Shown here one piece after another: positions 5,538 to 31,996 of a DNA stretch of 32,035 nt. The DNA comes from a virus (taxonomy: Duplodnaviria > Heunggongvirae > Uroviricota > Caudoviricetes), in IMG/VR virus record IMGVR_UViG_2690316263_000015, positions 1-32,035 of that record. The stretch is one strand, 5' to 3'. The notes below the pieces were generated by a model. The model searched no databases. It saw only the letters and a list, made by a program, of their open reading frames with translations, and had not been told where the DNA came from. The stretch's first letter is position 1. Every line of letters starts with the position of its first letter. The position numbers and the translations under genes are program-made.

Positions 5538-5963
5538 ATGTTTGGTATTTTCAAAAAGAAAACCCGCAAGGCCATTACTGAAGTGAAGAAGATGGAGAAC
5601 CGCGACGCAGTGGAGGCGACCGTCTGGGGCGCGTATTCCATAGCATTCGCCGACGGCACCTGTGATGCGAAAGAAATCGCTGTACTGGAAAAAACCATTG
5701 CAGCACTTCCTGCCTTTGCGCCGTTCTCCGGTGAGATTGCACAAATGAGTGCAAATATCCGCGCCCGTTATGAAGCGTCACCTCGTAGTGCGAATGCTCA
5801 GGCTTTGCGTGAACTGGCTGATGTGGCAGGAACCGCCGAAGCGGTTGATGTGCTGTGCCTGTGTCTCGATATTGCTGACCAGGATGGCATTGGTCCGGAT
5901 GAAGAAGCGCAGCTCAAGAAAATTGCTCAGGCGCTGCAGTTGCCGCTGGAGCAGTACCTGTGA
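5538..5963 (+). CDS. TerB-family (tellurite-resistance TerB-like) protein
   Basis: ATG 5538 after AAAGGAAAAG. 141 aa; the fold pattern (VWGAYSIAFADGTCDAKEIAVLEK ... VLCLCLDIADQDGIGPDEEAQLKKIAQALQL) parallels the two DG-containing helical repeats of TerB. Confidence 0.65.
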   Translation: MFGIFKKKTRKAITEVKKMENRDAVEATVWGAYSIAFADGTCDAKEIAVLEKTIAALPAFAPFSGEIAQMSANIRARYEASPRSANAQALRELADVAGTAEAVDVLCLCLDIADQDGIGPDEEAQLKKIAQALQLPLEQYL

Positions 5964-6112
5964 AAAGTGCGCGCCTTGTGCTGGCTGCCATCCTGCTGTT
6001 TCTGGTAGTGGCGGTGGATTTCACCGGACGGCTGATGTCGGTGCTGGCAGATGGTGTGCTGGTGGCGATGGCGCTGGCCGTACTCTGGCCTTTACTGCGT
6101 AAATCTGAATAA
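5960..6112 (+). CDS. small hydrophobic protein (50 aa), hypothetical
   Basis: GTG 5960 overlaps the TerB stop (GTGA). Translation VKSARLVLAAILLFLVVAVDFTGRLMSVLADGVLVAMALAVLWPLLRKSE is almost entirely one or two transmembrane helices. Too short for the ORF track. Confidence 0.3.
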   Translation: MKSARLVLAAILLFLVVAVDFTGRLMSVLADGVLVAMALAVLWPLLRKSE

Positions 6113-27762: not shown

Positions 27763-29712
27763 TTAATCGTGTTTTGGCCATACTTTCAATGCAATTTCCC
27801 CCAACTTTTTACCCCGCTCCAGGATTTCATCCTCATCCCATTTATCCTTAACTATAAGTGGAATGTTCAGTCGTAGATTGGTGTGGACGATGAGAGCATC
27901 ACGTTTTTTCAGAAATACAGCATTCTGAACAGAACGGTTTACGCTAAGGTTAAGCAAAGTTAGATTTCCCAAAGTAGCTATCGCTTGTTGCCGTTTCCTT
28001 ACCAGTAGCTGTTCAGGGGTAAGATCGGTTCCAGACAGAACAATTTGGTTCAATACCGTAGCATCTGAATTTGTCACCATACGACCATTTTCGAGAGGCC
28101 AACAGGAATACCAACTTTGGGGCATAAGATGATCGATATCGAGATTAGAAAGATTTGGAACATCAGGCTTTTCGGTCTTCACTTGGCGACAAAGTTCTCT
28201 TTCAAGTTCCGTTAACATTGAGCGCATTTTCGGTGCGTCGAGCCTGCCAGGATAAAGTGGAGCATTGATGCAAGCGTTGAGAAATTCTGAGTCACCAGGC
28301 CAACGTGAGGCTTCGCCATTTAAGTTATTGAGGATATTACGTAACTCAACACTGGAAATTTCCGTTTTAGCCAAGTGCCGCAATACATTCATAAATACAT
28401 TGTTGTAATTCTTTGGCGTCAGGCCACATACGGCTCTTCGTACTACGTAGGAGACAAGATCATTATACATGACTGCTTTCTCATCATCAGCGATGTTAGC
28501 TATCGAAATGAACAAAGCAAGCGGATAAAGTGTCGTCACATCATAGTCTGCGATGCGATATCCAAAGTGTGAGATGGGGGTTGTGCCAAAACCATCAACC
28601 AATTCTTTATATTGTAATGCATATTGTTTGAGGCGCTTTACTTGCAGATCTGCTCGTTGTGAAGACAAGTCCTTACTTACATAATCACGATACTCATTGT
28701 AAAGACGAGACAGATCAATTTCACGCTGCCTTTCTGATTGCAATGTCGCATGTACTAGCCACTCCATGCGTGGTTTATTAATACGTCCACGGCGTTGTTT
28801 TTCCGACCAGTATTTATCTTCAAAGCTCTTCCACTCATTTTCATATAATTCAATAGCATTAATATTTTCATGCTCTGCGCACATAAAGATATAGTTGCGA
28901 ATAAGATCCGTAGCATGAAGTTCCGCCCCTCGCCCATTTAATGTTTCAAAAATTATTTGGGCATCATCTTCAGCTTCGAGAAATATGCTTACCAGTTTCA
29001 GATCTGTTAAGACAGCCTCAATTAGAGCTACAGCATTTTCTTGTGGTGAGTGGTTTTCTATTTTAATCCATTTTATAAAGGCTTTAGTAAAAAAACATAA
29101 TGCTTCTAGTGATGGCGGGTGATTAAAACGCTTACGCAACGTACCATGCTGCGTGAAACTATCAGAGAATACGTCCCGGAGATCGTCAATCTTTTCAACA
29201 TTAAAACTTTGAATAAAATGAGTTTGATCCCGAAAAGTTGGCCACAGTTTGAAGCGTTCTACTTCTTTATTTCGCATTGTGTCTTCGTTTGAGTTTTTCA
29301 GGCAAGGCGAAATGAGAGCCTCTAAGCTGGAAAGATCCGTAGCACGTAATGCTAATCGGATGGATGCCAGAACATATTGAAGAGTGGTCAATCGTTGCTG
29401 ACCATCAATAATATGTATGGAATCTACACCTAATAATCCTTTTTTTGATTGAGGTTCCAGTACAACCGCACCAAGGAAATGGGGAGTTGGTTTTGTACCC
29501 GAGAGCCGGGATTGTGCTTTCTCTAGGATATCCTCCAGTAGAGCTGACCATTGGTCTTGCTGAGTCCATACATAGGCACGTTGATAGAATGGAACACAGT
29601 ATTGTCGGCGGTCTTGAAAAAGTTGTTGGACAGTTAGCGTCTCGGATTTCATGGTATACCTGTAAGCGACATTGTACAAAAGTGAGGAGTTAATCTGATT
29701 TAGAACAATCAT
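27763..29712 (-). CDS. DUF262-DUF1524 nuclease, GmrSD-like (type IV modification-dependent restriction candidate)
   Basis: 649-aa minus-strand ORF. N-terminal DUF262 motifs (FYQRAYVWTQ, IIDGQQRLTTL, FETLNGRGAELHATDLIRNY) and C-terminal DUF1524 His-Me finger (DIDHLMPQSW, GNLTLLNLSVNRSVQN). Likely true start at internal ATG 29652 (MKSETL). Gene is AT-rich. Confidence 0.8.
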   Translation of the reverse strand: MIVLNQINSSLLYNVAYRYTMKSETLTVQQLFQDRRQYCVPFYQRAYVWTQQDQWSALLEDILEKAQSRLSGTKPTPHFLGAVVLEPQSKKGLLGVDSIHIIDGQQRLTTLQYVLASIRLALRATDLSSLEALISPCLKNSNEDTMRNKEVERFKLWPTFRDQTHFIQSFNVEKIDDLRDVFSDSFTQHGTLRKRFNHPPSLEALCFFTKAFIKWIKIENHSPQENAVALIEAVLTDLKLVSIFLEAEDDAQIIFETLNGRGAELHATDLIRNYIFMCAEHENINAIELYENEWKSFEDKYWSEKQRRGRINKPRMEWLVHATLQSERQREIDLSRLYNEYRDYVSKDLSSQRADLQVKRLKQYALQYKELVDGFGTTPISHFGYRIADYDVTTLYPLALFISIANIADDEKAVMYNDLVSYVVRRAVCGLTPKNYNNVFMNVLRHLAKTEISSVELRNILNNLNGEASRWPGDSEFLNACINAPLYPGRLDAPKMRSMLTELERELCRQVKTEKPDVPNLSNLDIDHLMPQSWYSCWPLENGRMVTNSDATVLNQIVLSGTDLTPEQLLVRKRQQAIATLGNLTLLNLSVNRSVQNAVFLKKRDALIVHTNLRLNIPLIVKDKWDEDEILERGKKLGEIALKVWPKHD

Positions 29713-30495
29713 TTTATTCTGCTATGATACAACGTATTTGTTACCGGTTAAGTAAAAAACGCGTCTGAACGCTGACGTTTTAGGGCTTTACTGGTTATTC
29801 TTTCTTATCTCTTCATCATCCCATCGGCATCCTGTCGAGGTTGTTGACTTGTTGTTATTTATTTTGTCTAGGCGCTGTTTAATTATTATTGATAGAACTG
29901 ATGGTGAGAGGTGATTGAAATTGTAGGCACGTCGTTTGCAAGGACGTGCTACGACTGGCTGGTGAACTTCCGATAGTGCGAGTATTGAATGATTTCCTAC
30001 GTGCTAACTAGTGAACAAACAACTCTTCAGTAGACTCTCAGGTATCATTCAGAGTTTCCTGAACGAAAGTTTTAGCTCAATCTTTATCTGCAGTATGTCT
30101 AACTGAAAAACTATCGTTGCTGGTGGCTTTTACGATCATCTCCACATCGTCATAACGCTTGCCAATGTGTTGGGTTAACTCTTCCTTTAACGCGTCCACA
30201 GCGCCATTTGGCATTTGGTCATTTTGTCTTTGGTTATGGAGATCTCAATACGCATAACACTTCTTTTGTACTGCGTTTGTAGACAGTATTATTCTTATCT
30301 GTGTAAATAAACAGTATCAAGACTTCGTTTTAGCTGCATAAGAAAAAAGAGATGGATACATTCGGAAAGATTTTGATGGTGGTAGGCTAAGTGAATAGCC
30401 TAAAGGTGTTTTACCCCAATTATTCCCCGGTATTTCTCCGCATAAAAAACAATCATAAAAAACCAGCCATAATAGGCTGGTTCTTAAGGGATTTT

Positions 30496-30544
30496 TGGTC
30501 GCACGAGAGGATTTGAACCTCCGACCCCCGACACCCCATGATGG
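30496..30544 (-). other. orphan 3' fragment of a tRNA-Pro gene (about 49 nt, T-arm and acceptor 3' strand with CCA); not a complete tRNA
   Basis: Minus-strand reading CATCATGGGGTGTCGGGGGTCGGAGGTTCAAATCCTCTCGTGCGACCA matches, from recall, the 3' part of enterobacterial tRNA-Pro (proM-like). No matching 5' acceptor strand or D-arm upstream. Confidence 0.6.
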
Positions 30545-31465
30545 TTATGATAGACCGTAGTATTTTTTCAGAGCCGCTGTAGCTGCTTGAGTTGCAGCAG
30601 CTATTCCTATGCCCAAAGTACCATGGGCTGCTTTACTCGCAATATTTGCCAACCATTTACTAACAGATTGACCATATTCACCACGTTTGTTAGCTATCGG
30701 GCCATCTTCACCAATAGCAATTTCTAAATCGTTAACATCAGATTTAGGGAACCCCTGAGCTGAGAGAAACTCTTTTAATGACTCAGTGTCGTTTTTTACG
30801 ACGTGGTTATTCACAGAAAATGAGTTTTCATTTCCGAAGTTTATGACAGTATTGTCTCCAAAAATTGAGTTATGGAATAATGAAGACGTGTCGATATTTT
30901 TAAGTTTTTCTGTCATGTTTTTCTCATCTGGTATTTCAGAAACTTGATCAGAAAGTTCAAGTATAAAATCAAGTAGCCGTGACCTGACCTGAGTTAAGAT
31001 GGAAGTAAAGTTATGTAGTGCGATCTCTTTATAACAGCGTGTTAACTCATAGCCTTTATCGATACCTTTGCAGTACTTAACTAACGCGTAATCTAAAGGA
31101 ATTGGCTGCTGAAGAGCATGGCTATCACCAGCATTGGTTACTAGTTCTTCGATTTGACTGATTGAAAGCCTCACATTACTGGTTGTAGCATCTTCATAGT
31201 CATCTTCACTTAGATAGCCAATCGGTAACGGAAAAGCTCTATATAGGCGAACGCCGTTGTTCAGATCTGCAAGAATTCTTGTGCCAACAATTCTATAATC
31301 TGGAAGGGAAACTGAATCAGGATAACCGTTTATCTCATGATTTACCCATGCAGCAAGCTCCTTTTTCCCGATAGAGAAAAGAAGGATCTTCGTTTTTATG
31401 AGAGCATTTGTTGTGCCTTCATCACCAGTACTTAGTATCTGAATGATTTCTTGCAGTTGGTTCAT
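30545..31465 (-). CDS. abortive-infection-like protein (AbiTii-type N-terminal domain suspected)
   Basis: 306-aa minus-strand ORF. N-terminus (LQEIIQILSTGDEGTTNALIKTKILLFSIGKKELAAWVNHEINGY) resembles AbiTii-domain proteins as I recall them; C-terminus has an Ala/Gly-rich amphipathic tail. AT-rich. Family call unverified. Confidence 0.45.
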   Translation of the reverse strand: MNQLQEIIQILSTGDEGTTNALIKTKILLFSIGKKELAAWVNHEINGYPDSVSLPDYRIVGTRILADLNNGVRLYRAFPLPIGYLSEDDYEDATTSNVRLSISQIEELVTNAGDSHALQQPIPLDYALVKYCKGIDKGYELTRCYKEIALHNFTSILTQVRSRLLDFILELSDQVSEIPDEKNMTEKLKNIDTSSLFHNSIFGDNTVINFGNENSFSVNNHVVKNDTESLKEFLSAQGFPKSDVNDLEIAIGEDGPIANKRGEYGQSVSKWLANIASKAAHGTLGIGIAAATQAATAALKKYYGLS

Positions 31466-31479
31466 ATGTCTTATCCCAT

Positions 31480-31505
31480 AAAAAAAGCCCGCATTAGCGG
31501 GCTTT
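31480..31505 (-). terminator. intrinsic terminator on the minus strand downstream of ssrA
   Basis: Minus-strand GCCCGC-taat-GCGGGC followed by T7; about 130 nt beyond the tmRNA 3' CCA and 14 nt before the Abi-like ATG. Confidence 0.55.
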
Positions 31506-31633
31506 CATGTAACTAAAGAGCCGCGGCTCCTTTGCGTATCCTTTTTTGTCCCCTCACCGTCTGGTCGGTGTCCTGCTGAGACTGCTAACTTCCTGTTTTT
31601 ATTGGTGTTGTCCTTACACCGTCCAATCATGAT

Positions 31634-31996
31634 TGGTGGAGCTGGCGGGAGTTGAACCCGCGTCCGAAATTCCTACATCCTCGGTACTACATGCTTAGTC
31701 AGTCTTTACATTCGCTTGCCAGCTGCGGACGGACACGCCACTAACAAACTAGCCTGATTAAGTTTTAACGCTTCAACCCCAGGCAGGGCTTCCACGCGAT
31801 CTCTTTTGGGTTTGACCTCTCTTGATCCCCGTCCTAAGAGCGGAGGCTAGGGAGAGAGGGCTCTAAGCAGGTTATTAAGCTGCTAAAGCGTAGTTTTCGT
31901 CGTTTGCGACTATTTTTTGCGGCTTTTTACGAGGCCAACCGCCCCTCGGCATGCACCTTGGGTTTCGCAAATCCCGTCGAATCCAGAATCAGCCCC
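31634..31996 (-). ncRNA. ssrA: tmRNA (transfer-messenger RNA, SsrA)
   Basis: Reverse complement reads GGGGCTGATTCTGGATTCGACGGG ... GGACGCGGGTTCAACTCCCGCCAGCTCCACCA, 363 nt, with the tag reading frame GCAAACGACGAAAACTACGCTTTAGCAGCTTAA (ANDENYALAA) at 31875-31907. Confidence 0.95.

Follow-up and report, generated by a model that had tools for sequence, protein, structure and literature searches.

Organization of the ssrA-AbiTii locus

The stretch of DNA analyzed here (32,035 nucleotides (nt), referred to in its full length as the window) is IMG/VR record IMGVR_UViG_2690316263_000015, a piece of Escherichia coli chromosome with the transfer-messenger RNA (tmRNA) gene ssrA at its right end on the minus strand. 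Its subject is an open reading frame (ORF) of 306 amino acids (aa) that codes for an AbiTii-domain protein, lies directly behind ssrA, and may be transcribed by read-through from it. Reading along the minus strand, ssrA was followed by a trailer of 128 nt, a hairpin with its tract of seven T residues (T7), and then 14 nt and the ATG, placing the start codon 168 nt behind an intact and co-oriented ssrA. The same geometry in the initial annotation, including about 130 nt of DNA before the hairpin and a GGGA motif ahead of the ATG, was exact by coordinates. The features of this part of the window were:

31634-31996, minus strand: ssrA (tmRNA gene, tag ANDENYALAA; ARAGORN and Rfam RF00023, 295.8 bits), the proposed source of read-through transcription
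31506-31633, minus strand: copy of the ssrA trailer, 128 nt (sequence reading and comparisons)
31480-31505, minus strand: intrinsic-terminator hairpin and T-run, AAAGCCCGC-TAAT-GCGGGCTTT followed by T7, with an A-tract on the 5' side, of the bidirectional type
Parts of this hairpin, minus strand: A-tract AAA; stem GCCCGC at 31497-31502; loop TAAT at 31493-31496; stem GCGGGC at 31487-31492; T7 at 31480-31486
31466-31479, minus strand: 14-nt leader ATGGGATAAGACAT, offering no space for -35 and -10 elements
30545-31465, minus strand: AbiTii-domain ORF, 306 aa, with its ATG at 31465 (ORF list)

RNA folding gave the hairpin a stem of 10 base pairs, and the element showed the hallmarks of an intrinsic terminator, including a G+C-rich stem with an A-U extension, a 4-nt loop, and the T7 directly after it. 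A consensus terminator scan did not list the hairpin, which probably reflects a limit of the tool, since pairing of the stem can continue into the T-run and the tail would then be short of T residues. Folding and conservation establish the element as real. The leader contained a Shine-Dalgarno-like GGGA at 31474-31477, 8 nt ahead of the ATG, and both sequence and fold placed the stem at least 5 nt upstream of this motif, leaving it unoccluded. Between ssrA and the ATG, a consensus scan of the window detected nothing sigma-70-like on the minus strand. A 41-aa ORF in the trailer (31505-31630) was rejected as spurious since most orthologous trailers stop the same frame after four codons (ATG ATT GGA CAG TGA).

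Conservation of the layout among enterobacterial genera

Homologous loci were taken from genomes and IMG/VR, and an intact, co-oriented tmRNA gene ended 165-170 nt before the AbiTii start codon in 18 of them. These loci represented at least eight genera, namely Escherichia, Pseudescherichia, Citrobacter, Klebsiella (K. aerogenes), Buttiauxella, Leclercia, Enterobacter (E. hormaechei), and Yersinia (Y. proxima), with protein identities of 49-100%, and synonymous sites were saturated between genera (third codon positions 37-44% identical). Recurrence of the 165-170 nt gap in all 18 loci argues that the arrangement did not arise by chance. The hairpin was present in each of the 11 distinct upstream sequences linked to an ssrA trailer, the gap between T-run and ATG was 13-17 nt, and a G-rich motif resembling GGGA or GGAG stood at the same place in 10 of them, with Yersinia having only AGG (alignment A2). 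In 10 ssrA-linked loci, folding of the 50 nt upstream of the start codon gave -15 to -20 kcal/mol. Pairing of the hairpin was complete (100%) in 13 sequences in which the loop varied and three pairs were changed on both sides (the native copy of strain K-12, Buttiauxella, and Yersinia); support from covariation was modest, as 16 of 500 shuffles reached an equal number of doubly changed pairs.

The promoter scans covered the sigma-70-type consensus only (match of at least 8/12 within 175 nt upstream) and returned no match in eight of nine ssrA-linked loci. Together with the narrow T-tract-to-start gap, this bears out across loci the earlier statement that the gene has no space for a promoter. 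The single match was from Yersinia, where TTGATA-17-TATCAT lies just after ssrA and upstream of the terminator. Pantoea-type homologues situated away from ssrA (L048, L074, and L075) had no hairpin and carried several weak promoter-like matches (8/12) and a GGAG Shine-Dalgarno, while distant homologues (33-43% identity; L010-L040) had ordinary intergenic regions and no tmRNA gene upstream, which makes the linkage to ssrA specific to the enterobacterial clade.

It is unlikely that the gene is instead transcribed from an unconventional promoter of its own. Such a promoter could be weak or depend on an alternative sigma factor and overlap the terminator and T-run, could yield a leaderless or very short transcript, or could lie in the trailer, its transcripts then passing the hairpin as an attenuator. 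The sigma-70 scope of the scans, the AT-rich T-run, and the Yersinia match would be compatible with such a promoter. Against it, nothing promoter-like was conserved across the alignment, and the hairpin loop that would have to provide the -35 element for a start near the ATG varied freely (TAAT, TTAT, TGAT, and TAAC). The best candidate found by eye, GATAAG with GCTAAT 17 nt upstream, was a very poor match, and any promoter in the trailer would still be upstream of the terminator.

The AbiTii-domain protein

Residues 4-192 of the protein matched positions 3-184 of the 189-position Pfam AbiTii profile (PF18864; E = 3e-33, 116.1 bits against a cut-off of 27.6) and PADLOC agreed (PDLC02334; 4.5e-33, 113 bits). 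The initial annotation had given the family assignment as N-terminal resemblance only and named a hidden Markov model search for AbiTii as a check; that wording was too weak, as the search matched the whole AbiTii domain. Residues M1, I7, L11, and S12 were invariant in 20 homologues (alignment A1), and the ATG at 31465 was judged the correct start because of this conserved N-terminus and the Pfam match from residue 4. E44 was also invariant in these homologues and probably corresponds to the published highly conserved AbiTii glutamate, and the predicted model had mixed helices and strands in residues 1-176. The remaining residues 193-306 formed a conserved, family-specific C-terminal region (approximately 115 residues). 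No Pfam domain beyond AbiTii was found up to E = 1 and no effector domain was recognized. Reading of alignment A1 revealed no HEPN signature in residues 193-306 (no invariant H, no R...H pair, and no R-x4-6-H), and no structural neighbor was matched for the C-terminal region.

Selection on the gene was purifying, with a ratio of nonsynonymous to synonymous substitution rates (dN/dS) of 0.09-0.14 in unsaturated pairs, implying that it is functional and must be expressed somehow. A functional gene with saturated synonymous sites has had ample time to gain a promoter or to leave the terminator, yet neither has happened. The window protein was identical to that of E. coli CFT073 (UniProt A0A0H2V9L8). 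The phi-CFT073-smpB prophage spans c3143-c3206 (PMC6315130) and the AbiTii gene is its first gene by position. The CFT073 counterpart C_RS14940, on the same strand as ssrA within NC_004431.1 3,018,179-3,019,630, is probably c3143. Close relatives were common in Salmonella. By tblastn, 50,697 GenBank phage records contained no AbiTii homologue and consequently offered no isolated phage to serve as a model.

The N-terminal 190 residues match a domain model built on the family of the lactococcal AbiT system, which needs the two genes AbiTi and AbiTii according to a summary (in PMC13064643) of Bouchard et al. (2002), AbiTi being a predicted endoribonuclease of approximately 127 aa. In contrast to that system, the enterobacterial gene is chromosomal and prophage-borne in the Enterobacterales, has the extra conserved 115-residue C-terminal region, and forms a single unit flanked by terminators without an AbiTi-like ORF. 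In the window, no co-oriented small ORF that could code for an AbiTi-like partner was present next to the gene, which is bordered by the terminator 14 nt upstream and by a tRNA-Pro fragment and a second terminator downstream. The AbiTii N-terminal domain, described as a globular domain of the alpha+beta type in which a glutamate is highly conserved, is fused to HEPN in the c2405 and Ymh families (Anantharaman et al., 2013; PMC3710099). The present family resembles these in having AbiTii as the N-terminal module joined to a different C-terminal module and in the invariant E44, but its C-terminal region lacks a Pfam match, R-x4-6-H, or structural neighbor and no HEPN fusion is recognizable. The gene product is hence best described, from its sequence, as a single-gene AbiTii-domain protein for which both "Abi" and "toxic" are assumptions. 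When the initial annotation suggests a toxic effector of abortive infection that is kept at low dose, it speculates, and no reports of toxicity, defense, or abortive infection for this AbiTii subfamily were found in the literature.

Prophage context and origin of the trailer and terminator

The arrangement was present in 24 of 5426 complete E. coli genomes. In an annotated sister genome, the AbiTii gene was at one end and the integrase at the far end of a prophage of approximately 40 kb, which combined lambdoid regulation with an HK97-type head and a Mu-type baseplate. A direct repeat made up of the final 27 nt of ssrA delimited this prophage. Inward from AbiTii, the genes were a DinI-like pseudogene, a type IV restriction enzyme, and then convergent tail-fiber genes, marking this as the attachment (att)-proximal accessory and defense end of the prophage on account of the first two. 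The corresponding features in the window were:

31634-31660, minus strand: att core of 27 nt, CGGGTTCAACTCCCGCCAGCTCCACCA, formed by the 3' end of ssrA and present again at the integrase end in the sister genome
approximately 30038-30255, minus strand: DinI-like pseudogene (sister-genome annotation)
27763-29712, minus strand: type IV methyl-directed restriction enzyme (DUF262/GmrSD-like; PADLOC mREase_IV, 1405 bits)

The att core had an exact match of 22 nt at L002 14531-14552, and the junction sequence showed how far the identity extends in full. The prophage integrase was 87% identical to the integrase (Int) of phage LLS and unrelated to the proL-type integrase of phage Flotzy.

Trailer and hairpin were 87-89% identical to the phage attachment site (attP) arm of phages LLS, phiNP, and Ayreon. 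The LLS genome record ran from int through a 39-nt piece of ssrA to the same trailer and hairpin, after which came a convergent gene. Of 5426 E. coli genomes, 4206 (K-12 among them) had a native ssrA trailer approximately 91% identical to that of the window, strain CFT073 had two trailer copies, and an O103:H2 strain carried the trailer directly behind ssrA. In K-12, it was placed at the distal end of CP4-57 (L053 3975-4160), 10 nt from the stop of the convergent ypjA gene, and its stem (GCCCAC/GTGGGC) showed a compensatory change from G-C to A-T relative to that of the window. At this distal end, the native trailer came after a degenerate ssrA core, TTCAGACTCCGCCAGCCCACCA, and the same core preceded the AbiTii module in Enterobacter genomosp. 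O (L008). These comparisons identify the hairpin next to AbiTii as a copy of the ssrA trailer and terminator, borne by the prophage as part of the integration module. The terminator is of a bidirectional type that faces a convergent gene in other contexts (LLS, and ypjA in K-12). The "ssrA-side terminator" of the initial annotation was present as such, although it is not simply that of the host but the copy brought by the prophage. This phage-borne copy, the layout across genera, and the ordinary upstream regions of relatives away from ssrA are new here.

Four GGACA motifs were present in the trailer along with a conserved palindrome GGAGCCGCGGCTC (31518-31530) followed by TTTAG, and both motifs and palindrome were found in native as well as phage-borne copies. 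The palindrome could serve as a first, weak terminator or for protein binding or processing. An interpretation of the trailer as a phage-specific P' arm with the four GGACA motifs as integrase arm sites was rejected as the same trailer occurs in 4206 of the 5426 genomes, including K-12 and a strain with no adjacent prophage. A role similar to lambda sib/tI, in which int would be terminated across attP, was weakened by two opposite-strand ORFs between int and the att core.

The ssrA elements have been catalogued (Williams, 2003, as cited in PMC10107115). Similar to phages integrating in tRNA or tmRNA genes, as in the LLS attP, the phage supplies the 3' end of ssrA and the gene stays intact after integration. 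Unlike other such attP sites, the shared block runs approximately 150 nt past the gene through trailer and terminator, and a coding gene is fused to its end in this sub-family.

Other cargo was observed at the same position in sister prophages, including the STM2766/STM2767 helicase pair (strain 3985) and ydfK with ynaM (CFT073), while a Kiwa KwaAB pair was encoded elsewhere in the sister prophage (L002 28820-30231). In the O103:H2 strain (L081 2501-3943) and in L080, a co-oriented type II restriction endonuclease followed the ssrA trailer and terminator, accompanied by a convergent cytosine methyltransferase, and the O103:H2 endonuclease had approximately 75 nt of its own upstream DNA in this slot. 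The position immediately following the ssrA terminator seems to vary in content and to hold different defense-related genes, either AbiTii or a type II restriction-modification pair.

The downstream flank and possible exchange of the gene as a cassette

The AbiTii gene was followed on the same strand by two further elements:

30496-30544, minus strand: 3' fragment of a proL-type tRNA-Pro gene, 49-51 nt, immediately behind the AbiTii stop codon (identified by BLAST to the E. coli proL locus)
30457-30485, minus strand: second intrinsic terminator, AAGAACCAGCC...GGCTGGTTTTT, homologous to the proL trailer (terminator scan and BLAST)

The second terminator closes the AbiTii transcription unit. The same tRNA-Pro fragment adjoins int in phage Flotzy, which marks it in the window as the fossil attP of a proL-integrating lambdoid phage. 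It persists in a partly decayed state behind AbiTii in most ssrA-linked loci across genera. The possibility that AbiTii is a host islet with the prophage ending at the tRNA-Pro fragment was rejected since there was no second tRNA-Pro core at the integrase end, the ssrA core formed the direct repeat, and Int was LLS-type.

Comparison of window positions 30457-31633 with nine loci (L003, L008, L009, L041, L043, L045, L047, L049, and L050) gave 88-92% identity for trailer and hairpin and 83-86% for the downstream flank (in most loci) versus 64-72% nucleotide identity for the AbiTii coding sequence. That the flanks are far better conserved than the gene suggests cassette exchange of deeply diverged AbiTii alleles, for which the conserved segments would be the anchors, or else flanks kept uniform as they recombine with the ssrA trailer of the host.

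The same flanks are also as expected if the layout were a by-product without regulatory meaning, in which the hairpin terminates ssrA (and a convergent gene in relatives), AbiTii abuts it through an old recombination junction, and the lysogen expresses the gene little or not at all or it is transcribed only from the phage side across attP after excision. A gene lying between two fossil att segments far better conserved than itself would fit a cassette moved by flank recombination, the same hairpin ends the convergent gene in LLS and ypjA in K-12, displaced copies of the gene (see below) remain intact, and a weak promoter-like TTTACA-16-AATATT on the integrase-side arm reads toward the att core. 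The by-product explanation is nevertheless doubtful, as strong purifying selection implies that the gene is used, ssrA was co-oriented in 18 of 18 loci, and none of the 11 distinct upstream sequences had an insertion, promoter gain, or re-orientation between T-run and ATG despite saturated synonymous sites. A transcript from the phage side would moreover meet the same terminator.

Read-through from ssrA as the proposed source of AbiTii mRNA

The ssrA gene is widely regarded as a stable-RNA gene with very high expression. Read-through from ssrA is considered the best explanation for AbiTii mRNA, a judgment held with evenly balanced confidence. In the proposed mechanism, this family of temperate phages would integrate into the 3' end of ssrA via an LLS-type tyrosine integrase, with the AbiTii ORF as its att-proximal cargo gene. 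The attP would bring the ssrA core, the trailer of approximately 150 nt, and the terminator such that integration would rebuild a full ssrA transcription unit and put the promoterless AbiTii, equipped with a Shine-Dalgarno, co-oriented 168 nt behind ssrA. A small share of ssrA transcripts escaping the terminator would then provide AbiTii mRNA. The outcome would be low, constitutive expression suited to a gene protecting the lysogen, and dependent on integration because the attP of the free phage lacks the upstream ssrA promoter.

Several points weigh against this explanation. The hairpin looks efficient (six G-C pairs, A-U extended, and U7) and the leak may be very small, while 3' processing of tmRNA would cut off the mRNA and leave a 5'-monophosphate end. 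The conserved layout could in part be due to block inheritance rather than selection, the promoter scans had only the sigma-70-type scope given above, and no expression data for c3143 or AbiTii in E. coli were found in indexed paper text. In addition, the module followed only a 22- or 46-nt ssrA fragment in five loci (L008, L068-70, and L073) and the ORF was intact, the displacement being caused by a later CP4-57-like or P2-like element inserted between module and ssrA, though these insertions may be recent. Tandem arrays at ssrA (L068-L070 and L073, approximately 5670-6000; L080) had a P2-like prophage with CI repressor and integrase between ssrA and the AbiTii or restriction-enzyme module, with a 46-nt ssrA fragment before the trailer, so that AbiTii has lost its place right behind the ssrA promoter in these genomes.

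Stem-loops at the 5' end stabilize E. coli mRNAs, as in the ompA leader. This would favor a variant in which the hairpin is mainly a 5' stabilizer, where read-through RNA is cut in the AU-rich trailer during tmRNA maturation, the stem at the new 5' end shields the mRNA from RNase E, and the dose depends less on the leak than on processing and stability. The distance of at least 5 nt by which the stem clears the Shine-Dalgarno would permit this function, and a processed speA transcript from a bicistronic RNA has been proposed in Streptococcus pyogenes (PMC9951164). As a pure inference that would refine the read-through model and does not replace it, such a role for the hairpin was given a low probability, below that of the other alternatives.

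A precedent for ssrA read-through comes from S. pyogenes M1/M1UK, where RNA-seq, long-read RNA sequencing, and mutants of the terminator showed that 0.05-0.7% of ssrA transcripts run past the terminator and express the prophage gene speA as a bicistronic RNA (Davies et al., 2023; PMC9951164). The two cases share a prophage integrated at ssrA and a first cargo gene co-oriented downstream of an intact ssrA. They differ in phylum and phage, and in cargo, which is a superantigen in S. pyogenes and a defense-type gene here. For speA, a putative promoter has been proposed, and the distance between ssrA and speA is approximately 560 nt (in that paper's coordinates), whereas AbiTii starts 14 nt after the terminator. 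The speA phage integrated between two host terminators, thereby removing one, whereas the present phage brings its own copy of trailer and terminator. Read-through was demonstrated for speA and would be the counterpart here by deduction from the layout.

A classical phage moron carries its own promoter and terminator. AbiTii resembles such morons as an accessory, non-essential gene in an att-proximal position beside a defense gene (the type IV restriction enzyme) and with its own downstream terminator, but it has no detectable promoter, and the upstream element is a terminator leaving 14 nt available.

Implications for a possible prophage-encoded defense

Read-through from ssrA can be extended tentatively to an integration-activated defense, a possibility that falls somewhat short of probable. 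The promoterless AbiTii would be silent in the free or replicating phage and switched on only after integration at ssrA, with the terminator leak setting the dose. The ssrA trailer and terminator on one side and the fossil proL attP and terminator on the other would serve as recombination anchors by which diverged alleles are swapped among phages of different enterobacterial genera. If defense against phage is the function, expression of a defense-type gene would be tied to the integrated state.

If read-through holds, AbiTii would be a second case, from a distant phylum, of a prophage using ssrA transcription for a cargo gene. Unlike speA, it would be no lineage-specific accident as the layout has been kept in at least eight genera while the gene diverged to 49% identity. 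Leak through a stable-RNA terminator would then be a designed way for temperate phages to express low-dose, lysogen-only functions. The locus also gives a simple genetic handle on an uncharacterized family of single-gene AbiTii proteins, widespread both in E. coli (CFT073 among them) and in Salmonella.

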